From the NCBI GenBank assembly GCA_010093815.1, contig ML996567.1: a stretch of 64,000 nt of DNA; one strand, given 5' to 3'. How positions within the stretch are numbered: position 1 is the stretch's first letter; every line of letters begins with the position of its first letter. The DNA is from Pseudovirgaria hyperparasitica. Lineage: Eukaryota. Below the pieces are notes generated by a model. The model did no database searches. It was given only the letters and a program-made list of their open reading frames with translations, and was not told where the DNA came from. The translations under genes and the position numbers were made by a program. This document shows, in pieces, positions 16,466-24,227 of the stretch.

Positions 16466-18368
16466 CTAGAACAGCCTACATACATCTAATTTGGCCACAC
16501 TCGGGTCATGGTCACTGATTTGCGCATCTCTCTTCTCCCATGTGTTGATATGGATGTGCTCATATTTAACACGTCCAAGATACTTCTTTGCAGCCAGCGC
16601 CGGGCTCACGAATATATGATCCAGTTGCTGGCAATTCATATCAAAGAGATACGTATACCGCTCCTCAGGCACCAAACCGGCGATTTCATCCAAGTCTTGC
16701 ATGGACGACTGCTGCTGAAACACTTTCAGTGGGTTTGCGAAGACGAATTCGTTAAAGTCGCCCGCGGTAACGATCGAGGACGTAGGATCCTTGGAGAGTA
16801 TTTGGCGAATGAATGTCGCGGTGATATTTGCTTGTTGTGTGCGCACGTCAAGGACGCCATTGATTGGTGGCCGCGAGTCGCCTTCGATAGAATAGAAGAT
16901 GAGCCGCCTTTGGATGCGAAGTGGACGTTGATGGTGAAAAACTTATTGCGCCCGTCGAGAGTTTCCCATGCCGCAGCCAGGGGTTTGCGAGATGCTTGCC
17001 AGGCTGGGTTTGTAGGGTCGATGCGGCCGGGGTTGTACTTGAGCTCTGGACCGGCAAGGACTTCGTTCGCGTCTGTTGAGCTTCCAGGGTTCACTTTGCG
17101 GAGGCGGAGGACTGCTGGGTCGTATAAGTATGCGGTACGAATATTGCCACCGGGCTCGCCACCGTCTTGGTCGTCTACTGGGTCAATGTCGACATAAGAG
17201 TAACTGACGCCTGAGATGCTATTGATAGCAGAAGCGAGGCTGGCGAGGGTCAAGTTTGCATCAACAATGGCATCATTGGTTGCTCCATTGTTGTCTTGTA
17301 TCTCTTGGAGAAAGACGAGTGATGGAGATTTCATGACGTTGGCGATGTGAGAAGCGATTGCAGGCAGAATTGACTTTGTTGGCGTAAGGTTCTCAACATT
17401 GTACGATCCGAAGGTCAGATCCTTACAAGTCTTGCCAGAAGTCAAGGTCGTAGAGGATGGAAGAGTGGGAGCAGCAGAGCTGGTGACGACAATGCCAGTT
17501 AATGGCAGGATGCGATAAAAGCCGAAGGCATAAGTAATGACACCGGTGATATCCTGGAGAGAATCACCAAGCTTAGTGCCGGCAGAATTGTTTGTCCCAT
17601 CAAGAGGAGTGCCTATAATAATGGCCTCAGGATTCCCGTCTGTACGCTGTCAGCCTCACGTAACGTGTGAATGATAGTTATGTTGCCTTTGTTCGTCATC
17701 GTCAGTCCGCCTCTAGAATTCCTGCCTGATACTTTCCAATCGCCAGTGACCCAAGTGTCACCAAAATTATTCGGTTTACTGATGGCTTTCACGCCTTTCA
17801 CGGTCACGAGCTCTCCTGACAAGCTCTCCCAGAAGTCCAGACCAAAATCACCAGGTCTTAACAAAGGGTTCGCAATGGAGATTTGACTAGAATTGTTGGG
17901 CACTCCAAAGATATCTCCGTTGTCAAGCCCAGAGTACTGCTGAGTCGGTGGTGAGCCAGTATCCTTGCCAATCACTAAAGGAGCGACTGTGGTCCCCGAA
18001 GACAGCTTGGTCACGTTACGCGGGCTGGTGAGCTCGGTCAGAAGCATGTACGTCGGATTCGCCACCGGACGGTATTCTGTAATGACGCCGCCGAGATTGA
18101 CAATGTCGCCAACTGACAAATTCCGTCCTATGGTGCTGCTAAATACGTGGAGTGATTCTGAAGTGGCGACATCGTTGTCCGGTGTGGTTGACCGGATATA
18201 TATGCCGGCAGGACTCTTTGCAGTGACAAGACCAGTTACGTTCGAAACCGCCTGTCCAGCATACGGTGAAAGGAACCTGTTGCCATTGATCTCAGCTATC
18301 GTGAGTGCTAAGCCAAGGTTAGACAAGGACAAAACCGCTATGCCATCGGTAACGGCGGAGAGCTTCAT
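16466..18368 (-). pseudogene. Secreted endonuclease/exonuclease/phosphatase (EEP) family nuclease with N-terminal OB-fold-like region, frameshifted
   Basis: Signal peptide, IAEING..FLSPY, YNVENL, LQEIQDN, GGEPGGNIR, NVHF.SKGG, GDFNE, LDHIFVS, SDHDP. Intron 17686-17640. A tandem ATAGA duplication at 16887-16896 shifts the frame before GDFNE/SDH. It could also be an assembly error. Confidence 0.8.
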
Positions 18369-18796
18369 TCTGTTGTCGTAAAAGGCCAGTAATTCGAGAC
18401 CGGCGCTGACTATGGGGGAACTGGATGGATATGGGCGTATTTAAAACATCAACCCGGGGAGAAATCATTGTCGGCAATCGCCCGTCCACTGGTGCATCTA
18501 CAGATGTCGAGGATCCGAAGCTTGGCTTGATTGCAGAATGATGTAGCCAATCAGTCAACCACGTTGCGCGATTCAGCATTCGTGCCTGATGATGTGCCTG
18601 GTTGTGGTGCCGAGCCAGGAACGCCTCGGACTGCTCAATTAGGCGTTCCAGTCCGTTTCAGGCAGGAGCCAAGCCTCAGGCTACACATTCACGTATGCAT
18701 CTGTTCAGGATCCCTCTCGTGATTATGCATTTGAGAGGAGATCTCCTGGAATAGACCTTCAAGGTTGTAGATACGTGCAATTTTCAATTGCGCCAA

Positions 18797-21073
18797 TCAA
18801 CCAAATTCTCGACTGCGGACTCTGCCGAGCGCACCACCACGTATCCCATCCATGTTGTTAAAGCCTTTTCGGTTTGTTAGACCATTCATCACTTTCCGAC
18901 CGTTCCAAGCTGCGTTGATCTTGACTCTGTCTTCTGGTTTCTCCTCCATAAGTTTGCTCCACAGCTCACGAATGCCTGCTCTGCGCGCGGGTAGCATAGA
19001 GTATTGCAAAGAATAGAGGTTTTTACGATGGATAGGAGGCACAAATCGGCCTGTGACAAGGCACAGAAACACTCCTGGTGATAAATAATGCTTCCTGATC
19101 CGATTTCCCAACGCAAAATACTCGTGGAACATGGCGTTCAACGGCAGTGGTACGGATCGCAGATTAATGTGAGACGTACTTGAGCCCGAATCCATTGATG
19201 TAGGCCTGTATGTGCGCAGAGTCGGCTGCAGGTCAAATCTAATACCACCTGAGATAATCGACATTAGCAGTGCCTAGACTTGATAACGAGCGTCTTCTTA
19301 CCTGGTAGCCTCCTTGAATCTTTGATGCGTAACATCAAAGCGAACAGTGGGAAATGATTCAAACACGCAAGCAGGGTATCCAAACCAGCCTTCACAGAAA
19401 TGATGGCCATGCGCGCAGAAGCAAATGTCAAATAGAAGACAAACACTGTAGGAAGTAGGAAGAACAGAAGCGTGAATAGTATCGTTCCCAGCAACAGCTG
19501 GTCAAGTTCGTAGTCGCATGAATCTATACGATTTCGCAAAACATTACGCTTCTTTCCCCGGAACAGATGAAAAAGTGAAATTATTATCGTCAGCTGCCAA
19601 TTGAAAATTCTTGCTGACGCGACGTAAAAAGAGTAGATATGCAGTGTGAGAAGAGAAACCAGATCCGCGAACAGCGATATCGGCATCGTGGCGCCAGCAA
19701 AACTCGAAAAGCCGATGAAGCGAATAATTCCAGGGAGTGCGGGTCGGAGCATTGACATTGCTCCAGCCCAGTGATCAATAACCCACAGGAAAAGGTCACC
19801 CAGGAAAGCGGCGAGCTCGGTGTTGAGCTTCAGCCCTCCAGGCCATTCCATCAGCCATGATATCATCCGCCGCAGGCCTTCTACGGACCATGTATTGAAT
19901 ACCATATCCATCTGGGAGGCTACAAGGACGGCATTTTCAATGATGTAAGAGCCAAGTGCAATACCGATGATGACGTCGTTAGCAACAAGCCACAGGCTAT
20001 TGTAGAACCGGATATACTCAGGATGGTTGTTGGTGATACTCTCCCAGTTGGCCTTTCGCTTGCGTATTGTGAGGTACTGAATAGGCCAATAGCAAAACTG
20101 TTGGAGACGGATATCCACTTGTTGCGCAGTCGCCGAGATATCTTTCAGAGCGGCAGCTTCGTCAGACACTCTCCAGTCCAGGATGCGCAACACAAGCTCT
20201 CCGAATACCCTGTGCAGCATCAAACATAGGATAAATATATGAGCTGCGACCGGGTATATGTACATCGTCCATAAATATTGTAGGACGAGATGTATGTAGT
20301 CCCACAGGTCAGTCGCTGATTCCACGACTTTTTCACTGACACTCAGCGCACGCTTTGCTCGGACTCCCACAAGCCCTATATTTCTCTGCAACAATGCTGC
20401 AAGCTCAAAAGAGCAGTTGATCTGGTCGATTATGTGAGGTAGTGAGAGTTCCTTCCGGGTAGGTGGATGACTTGTTACTGTGTGAAGTTTCAGCTTTTGC
20501 ACAAGTGCCATTTTCCTCTCTCTCTCGAGCTCTTCTGCTGCCTCGATGTCGCCCAGTGGTGTCCCCTGGCCGGACCGCTCTGGTTTATCGTCGAGCGCCA
20601 AGGTCATTGGCGTCAAAGACATATACTGCATACGCGTCGAGTGTGGACGGTCGAAAATGATTATCTGTATAGTTAGACCGTTCTCGGGGCAAAACAATCG
20701 TGGTCGCTTGGTATTGGGCTCCGTGTAGACTATAATGCAGGTGATATCGAACCTAGTCGGTGCCTGGATGGGATTCAGCAGTCCTAACACTTGTAATGGA
20801 GATCCACCACAACGATCGAAAATTTGGCTGATTGGATGTGGCGCATTACGGTATAAGGTTCCCACTTGCAGCGCATTGTTCACGCTTCTGAGCTGTCGCA
20901 TCGTCAGTCACGACTTTGACCTCTAACAATTATCATACCTCGACGTCGAGCATAACGCAGACAACGAAGAAGTCGAGCTCTGAGTTTTTCCAACCCAAGA
21001 GGACTCCATTCTGCGAGGCATGATGTGTGCCAGAGGGCCAAAAGATGCGCATCAAGCCATTGGTCACAACCAT
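18797..21073 (-). CDS. GPI1: GPI-GlcNAc transferase subunit Gpi1 (PIG-Q)
   Basis: Exon 1 (21073-20939) MVVTNGLMRIFWP...GVLLGWKNS. Introns 20938-20893 and 19301-19249. Motifs YNSLWLVANDVIIG, WLMEWPGGLKLN, SLFHLFRGKKRNVLRNRIDSCDYELDQLLLGTILFT. Confidence 0.95.
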
Positions 21074-21090
21074 ATCATCTTCCGATGTTC

Positions 21091-21479
21091 TCAGAAAGAT
21101 CCCCGCCGCTTAAGTTGTTCACGAGCAGAAATTCCGCCGCCAGCTGTTCGCGGGTGCTATCAAAGTAATGAGCTTCTTCCCAATCTATACAACGGTGTAT
21201 GGGCTATTAACCAGACGTGCTTCCTGCAGTGCAATTCTTTCAAGAGGTACAATGAGTAGCAGGAAGAATACAGAAAGTATGCCAAATCCCTTCGCAGTTC
21301 GTGTCTATTTCAGAATATATTAGTTTTAGGTACAGACGGGAAGCTAATCGGTCACTCACAACTACACCGTGATCCCACGCGAATATCGCAAGCTCATACA
21401 GCCGTGTCACCAGGTCCCACCGCGCCGTTATATAGCCAGCAACGAATATGCCTAACGTGATTCCGGAAAACGGGTGCAT
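21091..21479 (-). CDS. Small (92 aa) hydrophobic membrane protein directly upstream of GPI1
   Basis: Exons 21479-21360, 21304-21212 and 21156-21091, with two 55-nt phase-0 introns (GTGAGT..TAG; GTTAAT..TAG). Product: MHPFSGITLGIFVAGYITARWDLVTRLYELAIFAWDHGVV|TRTAKGFGILSVFFLLLIVPLERIALQEARL|HPRTAGGGISAREQLKRRGSF*. Confidence 0.8.
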
Positions 21480-21715
21480 AGATTGGCGATGACTCGGCAC
21501 ACATGCCAATGCGCTGGTCGAAAGATTTTGCGAACGATTGGCGACCCGATCGACGACTCGAGAGAACGAGCGATGCACAGACTGTAGTGGCCGCTAAGTT
21601 GTCGAAAGGATGTCGTCCGATGCAGTCATTGCTCATGTTTGAATTATCTGGCGCGAGGAGAAGCGTCGTTTGAAGTTGGAGATCTGCAAGCGGGCTGTCC
21701 CGCGTTAGCTCCGCT

Positions 21716-21725
21716 ATCACGTGAC
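21716..21725. promoter_or_regulatory. Cbf1/bHLH-type E-box ATCACGTGAC in the divergent promoter of the small-ORF/GPI1 unit and the nucleoporin gene
   Basis: Matches RTCACGTG on both strands. The same core occurs at 8471 and at 36070 (upstream of APC2). Confidence 0.35.
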
Positions 21726-22156
21726 CCGCTCAATCAAGTCACTCAACAAAAGATTGCATATCTCGAGGAAAAAAGTTCAACGGAACGTGTAAAGCACGAG
21801 TAATTATTGCTCAACGAGGCAGTATCCAGCCTGTACGTAAAGCCATCTCTTATGATATATTCAAAGTCTCTCCAGGTGAATTGAGGATGGAGCGGAGGTG
21901 AATTTTTACCTTAAGAAGCTTAGCAGAGGCTTTAGATCCACGTCTAGCGCACCGACGCGACGCGGCTCATTCGCATCCTTGCTTGACCTTGCATCACATT
22001 ATATATCCACCACCATCCGTCGTGTCAATCGAAGTTTCATCGCGACACCTAACGATATCTTGCAACCCTCAGACACAAAACTCTGGTCGACGAGGAAAGA
22101 CACACATAAAATAACATCTCAGATCTAGCTCGAAGCTAAACCACCTGCAAGACATC

Positions 22157-24227
22157 ATGCCCATCTGCAGGTTCTGGCAGCAGGGTAACTGCAGGAATGG
22201 AAGTGAGGGCCAGTAAATCCATAGAGGTCGCACTATGCTTACTTCGTATACAGACGACTGCAAGTTTGAGCATGCTGGCCCTGGTGGGACCCAGAATCAA
22301 AATCGCTTCAACGCTTTCAATGCCCCGTCGAATTCGGGGCGCACGTTCGGAGATCGATACCGACCTGGTAAATTCCCTATTTCAAATTTGACAGATGAGG
22401 GGTAACATTTGATGCAGGGGGTAGCAATACTAGGGATGACAATACGTAAGTAGATCCTGATTGTACCAGCACTTTGTCTCATTCACCTACAGATATGGCG
22501 TTACCGCTAGTGCTATAGAGACCGATCTCTCGAAAGAACGGCCTATTTGGCCTTTGTCGAGCTATGGACCCGGCAAAGATGCCCCTAGGCAGCTTTTTGG
22601 TGGCTTTCCAGTCGAGCAGAGTCCCGAGGAAATGCGCATGCTAGCATATGCTGCTGTTGCAAATGGGAAACCGGAAGCTGCGGTAAGCATAGCGCTTTGC
22701 ATTCAAGAAGTTATTCACTGATCATTTTGTTAGATGCAAGATGAGCGCGCACTTGCAGAACAAGTGAATGGTCAGATCCAGAAATGCTTAGGCGATCTTA
22801 ATGGAGCAGTCAAGTATGTCCTTGATGGTCGAGATGCCCATCCTAATAGACATGACGAGTGCGTATCGGGAAATACGTCAGGTATAGGCAATCAAGCCCG
22901 AAGTAATGCCTTTTCTACGGTATCTTCAACGCCCGCAACCTTTGGTCAGAATACATCAACATTTGGTCAACCTTCTGCTCCCACCCAGACGTCTGCATTC
23001 GGACAACCATCCGCGCCAGCGCAAAACACAGCTTTTGGTCGGCCATCAGCACTTGGCTCTACACCAACTTTCGGCCAACCCTCTCAGCCAGTATCTGCGT
23101 TTGGCCAGCCATCAGCACCACTTGGGAATAGCTCTGCTTTAGGGGGACAATCAGCATTTGGACAACCGTCAGCTCCAGGCTTTGGGCAGAAGTCTGCCTT
23201 CAGCCAGCCGTCACAACCTGCTTTCGGCCAGTCAGGCACATCGTCGACATTTGGACAACCCTCTCAGCCAGGACTAACGTCTGCATTCGGCCAAGTCCCA
23301 CAGCCAGGACCAACACCAGCATTCGGACAGCCTGCCTTTGGGCAGCCATCTACTCTTGGCCAAACACAATCTCAAGGCTCAAATTCAACGTTTGGTCAGG
23401 CATCACAGCCAGGTTCGACATCGACATTTGGTCAGCCCTCGCAATCCGGTTCAACACCGGCATTTGGTCAACCATCACAGCCGGGCGCAACATCAGCCTT
23501 TGGTCAGCCTTCGCAGCCAGGAGCTGCATCAGCATTCGGGCAGCCCTCGCAGACAGCAGCCGCGCCAGCGTTTGGTCAGCCATCAGCTTTTGGTAAACCA
23601 GCGTTCGGAACGCCATCTCAGCCTGCGTCGTTTGGTGGACAACTAAATACTGGCGGAAGTGCTTTTGGAAAGCCTTCTCAGCATGCATTTGGTGCATCGC
23701 CCTTCGGTGCCGGTATCAGTGGAGCTAACCAGTCACCCCATGTTGCCCAAGGAAATACCCCACAAACGTCTGCATTTGGCCAATCCGCATCGAATTTCGA
23801 TACTGCTGCCAATCGAGCCACATCCACGCAAGCAAATGCAAATGGATTTTCTACTTCTCCAGCGCAGGGGTCTACTATATTCCCGCCATCCACGGTAGAT
23901 TCAAGAACGAAAAATCAGAACGGCCTTTTGTCGTCATTCAATGGTCGACCTGTCTCTTACCAGACATGGCCTCCAAACACTGAGGGTGGATCTAAAAGGG
24001 CACAAAACAGTTTACCTTTCTATCAGCCAAATGGCAGAGACTGGGAACGGATATGGCTCACTGATATTCCGCAGCCGAATACCGCAGCAGAGCCCCAGTT
24101 GCCACCCAGTGTCGATACTGGGATTCTTACGGAGGCGTACAAGTTTGCTGTTGAAAATGGCAAATTTAAGGATGACATCATGCCGGAATATCCACCCAAG
24201 CGAGAGTGGGTCAATTTCAATGTCTGA
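22157..24227 (+). CDS. amo1: CCCH zinc-finger FG-repeat nucleoporin (Amo1/Nup42/NUPL2-like)
   Basis: Spliced N-terminus CRFWQQGNCRNGNDCKFEH (C-x7-C-x5-C-x3-H), DLSKERPIWPLSSYGP, many FGQPS repeats, C-terminal MPEYPPKREW. Introns 22203-22253, 22368-22417, 22446-22492 and 22683-22733. Confidence 0.88.
22930..23790 (+). repeat. Degenerate coding repeats (FGQPS nucleoporin FG repeats)
   Basis: More than 20 recurring TTYGGNCARCCNTC units encoding FGQPS/FGKPS. Confidence 0.9.

Follow-up and report, generated by a model that had tools for sequence, protein, structure and literature searches.

Bicistronic messenger RNAs (mRNAs) are already known from human cells, from the fungus Glarea lozoyensis and from green algae, and the gene pair that we propose here as a bicistronic unit would be a further case, unusual for fungi. 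It consists of GPI1, which encodes a subunit of the glycosylphosphatidylinositol (GPI)-N-acetylglucosamine (GlcNAc) transferase, and an open reading frame (ORF) of 92 codons, the micro-ORF, directly upstream. Both lie on the minus strand of a 64,000-nucleotide (nt) stretch of contig ML996567.1 of Pseudovirgaria hyperparasitica (assembly GCA_010093815.1); this whole stretch is called the window, and positions count from its first letter. What stands out is that the gene concerned is a housekeeping gene, that the arrangement is conserved across five classes, and that an unstudied micro-protein is found beside a subunit of an essential enzyme. The arrangement is undescribed in the open full-text literature that we searched, subscription journals and closed supplements being outside its scope.

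One article names human PYURF(PreY)-PIGY as a characterized bicistronic transcript (PMC13303939), which upholds the parallel drawn with it in a preliminary description of the window. The likeness is that one mRNA carries two conserved ORFs, one of them for a subunit of the GPI-GlcNAc transferase. PIG-Y, however, is small and encoded by the downstream ORF, whereas the downstream subunit here is the large Gpi1/PIG-Q, and Pfam searches at E values up to 10 relate the small upstream protein to neither PIG-Y nor PreY. Within the Pezizomycotina, dicistronic mRNAs of Glarea lozoyensis (glpks3-glnrps7) have a 26-bp spacer and yield two proteins, for which the authors inferred post-termination reinitiation (PMC4471562). 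Our locus would share with these operons a dicistronic mRNA with a very short spacer, but the Glarea genes serve secondary metabolism, are restricted to their lineage and include very long upstream ORFs, whereas here a 92-codon ORF precedes a housekeeping gene of an essential pathway in five classes, and reinitiation is suggested by the start-codon layout no more strongly than leaky scanning or bypass. Two further papers state that an engineered 9-nt fungal spacer (IGG1/IGG6 work) supports post-termination reinitiation after long ORFs (PMC11677970) and that yeast can be induced to reinitiate across a short spacer (PMC11952965). More distant parallels are the polycistronic loci of green algae, which make conserved proteins from one mRNA (PMC7896298), and animal micro-proteins encoded by upstream ORFs (uORFs), such as MIURF-MIEF1 (PMC13303939); these too have two or more conserved proteins per capped mRNA, in another kingdom and with other proteins.

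Results

The micro-ORF ends 17 nt before the GPI1 start codon

We dissected the gene structure on the minus strand of the window and then checked it against RNA-derived contigs and homologues. The micro-gene has three exons and a product of 92 amino acids (aa). Exon 1 (21360 to 21479) begins with the ATG at 21479 and holds codons 1 to 40; exon 2 (21212 to 21304) holds the 31 codons 41 to 71, including the second hydrophobic helix; and exon 3 (21091 to 21156) holds the 21 codons 72 to 92 and the TGA at 21093-21091, its invariant C-terminus ending in RRGSF. The two introns, each of 55 nt, lie at 21305 to 21359 (GTGAGT..ATAG) and at 21157 to 21211 (GTTAAT..GATAG, with an unusual GTTAAT donor). 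A two-exon model of 79 aa (stop at 21187-21185) was weighed on account of the poor second donor and was ruled out by the RNA joints and the conserved exon 3.

A spacer of 17 nt (21074 to 21090) leads to the GPI1 start codon at 21073. GPI1 exon 1 (20939 to 21073) encodes the conserved N-terminal motif GLMRIFWP, and a 46-nt intron (20893 to 20938) separates it from exon 2 (19300 to 20892), which carries the Gpi1 domain; a second intron of 53 nt (19247 to 19299) precedes exon 3 (18797 to 19246), which includes the stop at 18799-18797. With exon 2 as query, the downstream ORF was identified as GPI1 by Pfam family PF05024 (E = 6.4e-112, 373.7 bits against a cut-off of 22.2, profile positions 1 to 265 of 265). 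The spliced GPI1 product has 725 aa and is identical to residues 95 to 819 of the public protein P0121. Every coordinate given in the preliminary description for the three-exon ORF, its 92-aa product and its distance from the GPI1 ATG proved correct.

Unbroken RNA-derived contigs cover both ORFs

Two runs, X1 and X2, from one sample of one study contain 0.88 and 0.84 of the stretch's words. No run that is recorded as RNA contains the stretch, and the kind of these two is unrecorded; we infer that their contigs derive from RNA because all four introns of the locus are missing from them. Over 18400 to 22000 each run has one long contig (5496 nt in X1 and 6308 nt in X2), which skips exactly 21305-21359, 21157-21211, 20893-20938 and 19247-19299, all GT..AG on the minus strand, and matches the window elsewhere without any difference. 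The two micro-gene introns that had been predicted from the letters of the window are therefore spliced. From 21712 in X1 and from 21574 in X2, the contigs cover the 5' leader (21480 to 21712) and run unbroken through the micro-ORF, the spacer and the entire GPI1. Neither contains a joint besides the four canonical introns, and none fuses the micro-ORF to GPI1.

A second species gave a comparable contig, L048 (2698 nt), which is the spliced form of the genomic contigs L027, L028 and L030 (99 to 100% identity); one intron of the micro-gene and three of GPI1 are missing from it, and it spans both ORFs. Cover of both ORFs by unbroken RNA-derived contigs thus extends to two species, with the proviso that contigs may merge overlapping transcripts. 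Bases 1 to 114 of L048 are foreign to the locus. We take them to be the start of a photosystem II D1-like protein, and they are probably an assembly chimera with an abundant transcript and not an alternative exon.

Two short contigs, L017 (2623 nt) and L033 (2868 nt), carry an intronless micro-ORF, a spacer of 30 and 29 nt, and a complete GPI1 ORF of 731 and 720 aa, respectively. The micro-ORF begins at base 70 of L017 and at base 294 of L033, and the contigs end 52 and 107 nt after the GPI1 stop. If of RNA origin, they have the shape expected for a bicistronic mRNA of 2.6 to 2.9 kb. L018 lacks introns that are present in its 85%-identical relatives L039 and L041. No poly(A) tails were seen on the complementary DNA-like contigs.

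The micro-ORF and GPI1 are linked in all informative loci

A scan of metagenome contigs yielded 221 confirmed loci, 80 of which were kept for linkage analysis. In 76 of these 80 environmental fungal loci, a GPI1 start (GLMRIFWP or a close variant) follows the micro-ORF stop by 6 to 63 nt; the other four (L006, L011, L035 and L070) end at a contig edge before the GPI1 position. No micro-gene without an adjoining GPI1 was found among the 80 loci, 76 of them informative. Removal of duplicates left 40 distinct sequences, the window included, with spacers of 6 to 32 nt. The arrangement is far beyond chance. It had been argued from the 17-nt spacer of the window that a terminator plus a promoter would find no room between the ORFs, and the environmental loci extend this to a conserved property, with very short spacers wherever the distance can be tabulated and with no unlinked homologue.

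Of the 59 loci modelled, those that bear introns have them at the same positions as the window, following codons 40 and 71, which most lineages share; other lineages have lost one intron or both. In L007, a genomic contig of 250 kb, the micro-gene is intronless and the spacer is 10 nt long; a separate GPI1 promoter therefore cannot hide in introns.

The linkage has left its trace in public databases. A search for longer proteins with micro-protein exon 1 as query gave 293 matches, and 68 of the 120 matches listed carry a Gpi1 domain and are gene models that fuse the micro-ORF to GPI1. Because fusions make up this share of the listed matches, the error is widespread in annotated ascomycete genomes. 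We take the 68 fused models to span Dothideomycetes, Eurotiomycetes, Sordariomycetes, Leotiomycetes and Lecanoromycetes. They bridge the micro-ORF stop in differing ways. P0121, whose source name is Gpi1 of Pseudovirgaria hyperparasitica, a dothideomycete, agrees with the window in every one of the 725 GPI1 residues and in micro-protein residues 1 to 82. The 12 residues that join these two parts can be read in none of the three frames of 21160-21060; the model therefore depends on an invented splice within exon 3, by which the conserved C-terminus is lost.

The micro-ORF encodes a conserved protein family

Micro-protein exon 1 (40 aa) matched 1029 proteins of 43 to 139 aa, and the best 120 of these show 88 to 98% identity over 40 residues. 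The named sources are many genera of filamentous ascomycetes, and exon 1 is nearly invariant across the Pezizomycotina. Of 20 homologues that were retrieved, 13 are annotated at 92 aa and consist of the same three parts, including the exon-3 peptide with its C-terminus, which confirms the three-exon model independently; the remaining seven are unspliced or mis-spliced predictions. Mean column identity in the homologue alignment is 83%. For 35 environmental loci the micro-ORF could be modelled with 92 codons. Their nucleotide diversity at first, second and third codon positions is 0.23, 0.10 and 0.58 over the whole micro-ORF and 0.11, 0.05 and 0.49 in exon 1. Synonymous sites are free to vary even in the invariant C-terminal residues, the last 14 residues being nearly invariant. 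From the codon-position diversity and this synonymous variation it follows that the peptide, rather than an RNA element, is the target of selection in the micro-ORF. Some viruses reinitiate by means of an RNA motif ahead of the stop; a conserved motif of this sort was considered here and rejected because synonymous sites in that region vary freely.

These results indicate that the 92-aa protein is a real, strongly conserved and uncharacterized family. A profile search of 1.84 billion representatives gave 256 matches at E values up to 0.001, the best 150 of which all appear to be the same family or unspliced fragments of it. The micro-protein exons matched no Pfam family at E values up to 1, and 13 full-length homologues searched at E values up to 10 matched only COX8 (0.28) and a Piezo unit (0.11). 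A profile search of the PDB with the micro-protein found no solved relative, and an Atlas search returned its own Ascomycota clusters only, plus one weak bacterial row at 0.82. Many sources label the 92-aa proteins 'phosphatidylinositol glycan class Q', a name that has evidently spread from the fused gene models.

Hydropathy marks hydrophobic stretches at residues 3 to 19 and 43 to 67. The AlphaFold2 model is a helical hairpin (helices 3 to 36 and 39 to 71) followed by a short helix (82 to 88), with a mean predicted local distance difference test score of 82.8. Such features are typical of a membrane micro-protein with two hydrophobic helices, as which we would class it from the model. The micro-protein shares with PIG-Y/Eri1 the trait of being a small protein with two hydrophobic helices, a trait that carries little information, and the Pfam searches gave no sequence match to PIG-Y/Eri1. 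Nor did the 13 full-length homologues match DPM2, a small regulatory protein that associates with the GPI-GlcNAc transferase in mammals, in Pfam at E values up to 10. Pfam presumably contains models of both PIG-Y and DPM2. A PDB sequence search with Gpi1 found no solved relative, and a predicted complex of Gpi1 (P0121 residues 95 to 819) with a 92-aa homologue scored 0.00, a result that was obtained with alignments unused and weighs neither way.

A weak micro-ORF start codon lies behind a strong upstream AUG

A study of Neurospora reports that a purine at -3 is informative, that weak AUGs are leaky and that leaky scanning is set by AUG context (PMC7049704). The micro-ORF AUG of the window has T at -3 and C at +4, a weak context. 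Across the 40 distinct sequences, position -3 of this AUG is T in 34 and C in 6 and never a purine, with flanking bases that differ between lineages, and +4 is C throughout. At the GPI1 AUG, by comparison, 35 of the 40 have a purine at -3, the window having G at both -3 and +4. Next to the micro-ORF start codon, the codon for His 2 (21476-21474) is CAC in 35 of 35 loci, with neighboring codons varying at their third position, which hints at a nucleotide-level constraint just after the start.

A further AUG lies 16 to 42 nt ahead of the micro-ORF AUG in 34 of the 40 sequences, and 33 of these 34 have a purine at -3. Twenty-one of the 34 open a mini-uORF, mostly of four codons, that stops 9 to 25 nt before the micro-ORF AUG; the ORFs of the other 13 abut or overlap the micro-ORF AUG, and 9 of these end at +86, as in the window. 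The leader of the window holds upstream AUGs at 21636, 21629 and 21504, all on the minus strand. The one at 21504 lies 25 nt ahead of the micro-ORF AUG with G at -3 and opens an out-of-frame ORF of 36 codons (21394 to 21504, TGA at 21396-21394) that overlaps the micro-ORF start. The preliminary description missed two conserved features that bear on the mechanism, namely the strong AUG upstream and the weak context in which the micro-ORF AUG lies.

Downstream of its start codon the micro-ORF is poor in AUGs. None of 3637 micro-protein residues is an internal Met, though the second helix varies freely among hydrophobic residues. Between the micro-ORF start and the GPI1 AUG there are 0.53 AUGs per 100 nt, compared with 3.13 in the first 130 nt of GPI1 and with a calculated value of about 1.6 for random sequence of even composition.

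Neighboring genes and transcripts

A second RNA contig, on the opposite strand, covers 21803-22000 (plus strand) with a 103-nt GT..AG intron at 21833-21935; it begins only some 90 nt beyond 21712, where the minus-strand contig ends. The region between the minus-strand unit and the plus-strand gene (ORF 22734-24227) looks like a compact bidirectional promoter. This plus-strand ORF encodes 497 aa rich in FGQPS-type repeats and has no Pfam match at E values up to 0.01; we take it to resemble an FG-repeat nucleoporin. On the other side, the minus-strand ORFs 17613-18440 and 16726-17649 lie under an extension of the X1 and X2 contigs below 18400, which may reflect read-through or overlapping untranslated regions (UTRs) merged in assembly. 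The 251-aa ORF below 18400 on the minus strand has no Pfam match.

In Leotiomycete- and Sordariomycete-like loci (including L009, L032, L043, L049, L054-L065, L077 and L078), a Mdm35/TRIAP1-like gene is a conserved same-strand neighbor about 600 to 1100 nt upstream of the micro-ORF and is sometimes merged with it into one gene model (PF05254 occurs in the fused models P0144, P0193 and P0229). It was rejected as a third cistron, given this distance elsewhere and its absence from the window.

Discussion

We consider it probable that the micro-gene and GPI1 form one transcription unit, the mRNA of which carries both ORFs, with GPI1 reached by leaky scanning, by bypass on a uORF, by reinitiation or by a combination of these. 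The spliced introns, the spanning RNA-derived contigs, the conserved linkage and the lack of a readthrough frame all speak for the shared mRNA that had been proposed from the window alone. The two same-strand ORFs do not overlap, and each is protein-coding, the micro-ORF by its codon-position diversity and GPI1 by PF05024. That both may be translated from the shared RNA is supported indirectly, by protein-level selection and by the AUG contexts.

After translating a uORF, ribosomes need distance to regain initiation competence. Leaky scanning is the mechanism reported for green algal polycistrons. At the locus described here, a single promoter region upstream of about 21712 would drive both cistrons, the mature mRNA would carry both, and the micro-ORF would encode a conserved two-helix micro-protein while acting as a long uORF for GPI1. 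Translation of GPI1 would fall to ribosomes that fail to initiate at the micro-ORF AUG, which the pyrimidine at -3 would keep weak. The strong AUG 16 to 42 nt upstream would open either a longer uORF that overlaps the micro-ORF AUG or a mini-uORF of about four codons with its stop some 10 nt short of that AUG, and ribosomes using the strong AUG would be carried past the micro-ORF start. Such ribosomes could reinitiate about 200 to 300 nt downstream, at the GPI1 AUG with its good context, and the stretch between, which lacks in-frame AUGs and holds very few AUGs overall, would give them room to regain competence. Post-termination reinitiation across the spacer of 6 to 63 nt may contribute.

Delayed reinitiation, the route that we infer for these ribosomes, resembles regulation of the GCN4/ATF4 type, in which ribosomes that have translated a short, strongly initiated uORF skip a close AUG and reinitiate further downstream. 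The mini-uORFs that end 9 to 25 nt before the micro-ORF AUG, in 21 of the 40 sequences, would fit this scheme. Unlike in GCN4/ATF4, a conserved protein is the product of the ORF that would be skipped at our locus, this ORF and the main ORF do not overlap, and the locus is not known to respond to stress.

Several observations weigh against a shared mRNA translated in this way. A 92-codon ORF that ends 2.2 kb and two introns before the 3' end is expected to attract nonsense-mediated decay. All RNA evidence consists of assembled contigs, from which single molecules with both ORFs would have to be deduced, and the X1 and X2 contigs extend about 2.4 kb below 18400, beyond an ordinary intergenic gap (about 430 nt) and into the gene that follows on the minus strand, so their continuity is no proof of a single transcript. 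The 40 distinct sequences are related, so that counts among them overstate independent events. Shuffling of synonymous codons showed no significant extra depletion of out-of-frame AUGs (1.08 observed, 1.30 expected), and an out-of-frame AUG at +82 is kept in 32 of the 40; it always has T at -3, a weak context set by the surrounding codons, and in 30 of the 32 sequences the ORF that it opens closes ahead of the GPI1 AUG. If the window transcript starts above 21636, the strong AUG there opens a uORF of 80 codons. Finally, in the window and 18 other sequences (19 of 40) an out-of-frame AUG precedes that of GPI1 by 5 to 8 nt. Most of these AUGs have a purine at -3, and the ORF opened there, of 3 to 27 codons, runs across the start of GPI1 and in some lineages ends in a TGA that overlaps the GPI1 AUG. 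In the window this AUG lies in the spacer at 21078-21076 on the minus strand, with A at -3 and a four-codon ORF across the GPI1 AUG. It should intercept scanning ribosomes, and we have no good explanation for it.

The main rival is that the locus makes two overlapping but separate mRNAs, with a GPI1 start inside the micro-gene and a micro-gene poly(A) site inside the GPI1 coding region, which short-read assembly has merged. That the X1 and X2 contigs do merge neighbors, running as they do into the next gene, agrees with this, and a Zymoseptoria Iso-Seq preprint warns of false polycistrons assembled from the overlapping UTRs of neighbors. Separate mRNAs, however, give no reason why all 76 informative loci, from five classes, should keep the spacer at 6 to 63 nt, nor why the micro-ORF AUG should be weak in 40 of 40 sequences and Met be absent. 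In the intronless L007, the GPI1 promoter and start would have to sit inside a highly constrained coding sequence of 279 nt, and L017 and L033 end neatly around the ORF pair. We therefore regard separate mRNAs as unlikely, and the remaining two explanations are less likely still.

The first of these accepts a shared mRNA but makes the 92-codon ORF mainly a cis-acting regulatory uORF, whose conserved peptide stalls or gates ribosomes and has no function as a free protein. The near invariance of the last 14 residues before the stop, amid variable synonymous sites, is what such a peptide would show; a ribosome paused at the micro-ORF stop would presumably cover a GPI1 AUG 6 to 20 nt downstream, and any translation of the micro-ORF reduces the flow to GPI1. 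Regulatory uORFs of the arginine attenuator peptide type are short leader ORFs with a peptide that is conserved mainly towards its C-terminus. Conservation here is not confined to the C-terminus, however, the N-terminal 40 residues being the most conserved, and 92 codons with two conserved introns and two long hydrophobic helices are unlike arrest peptides. As the main function of the ORF this seems improbable to us, although a regulatory role and that of a membrane micro-protein are compatible with each other.

The last explanation, a single fusion of micro-protein and Gpi1 made by stop readthrough, frameshifting or alternative splicing, as is implied by the fused public models and by P0121 among them, the exact match to the window, is hardly credible: spacer length modulo 3 is 0, 1 and 2 in 16, 16 and 8 of the 40 distinct sequences and all three stop codons are used, which means that there is no fixed frame relation and that readthrough or frameshifting is not the point, as had been said of readthrough for the 17-nt spacer of the window, while the four canonical introns are the sole joints in the RNA contigs and the models join their parts inconsistently, P0121 by way of its invented splice.

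GPI-anchor synthesis is essential in fungi. The first enzyme of the pathway is a drug target, jawsamycin being reported to act on Spt14/Gpi3 (PMC7341893). If the ORF pair is expressed as we propose, all filamentous ascomycetes sampled use a naturally bicistronic mRNA to make Gpi1 and, with it, an unstudied micro-protein that is the more strongly conserved of the two. More tentatively, and with less confidence than in the shared mRNA, we suggest that in filamentous ascomycetes the 92-aa hairpin protein may belong to the GPI-GlcNAc transferase as an unrecognized subunit or may regulate it, as a functional counterpart of PIG-Y/Eri1 or of DPM2. It would thus have a role in GPI synthesis, and its own synthesis would have been coupled to that of Gpi1 by a bicistronic mRNA kept since the ancestor of five classes, with the mini-uORF, the weak AUG and the AUG-poor layout setting the ratio of the two proteins. 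Expressed from one mRNA, the pair would be a class-wide housekeeping example of fungal bicistronic translation, a natural system for leaky scanning and reinitiation, and the source of a candidate new component of the GPI-GlcNAc transferase, and many public gene models, including P0121 for the gene of the window, would need correction.

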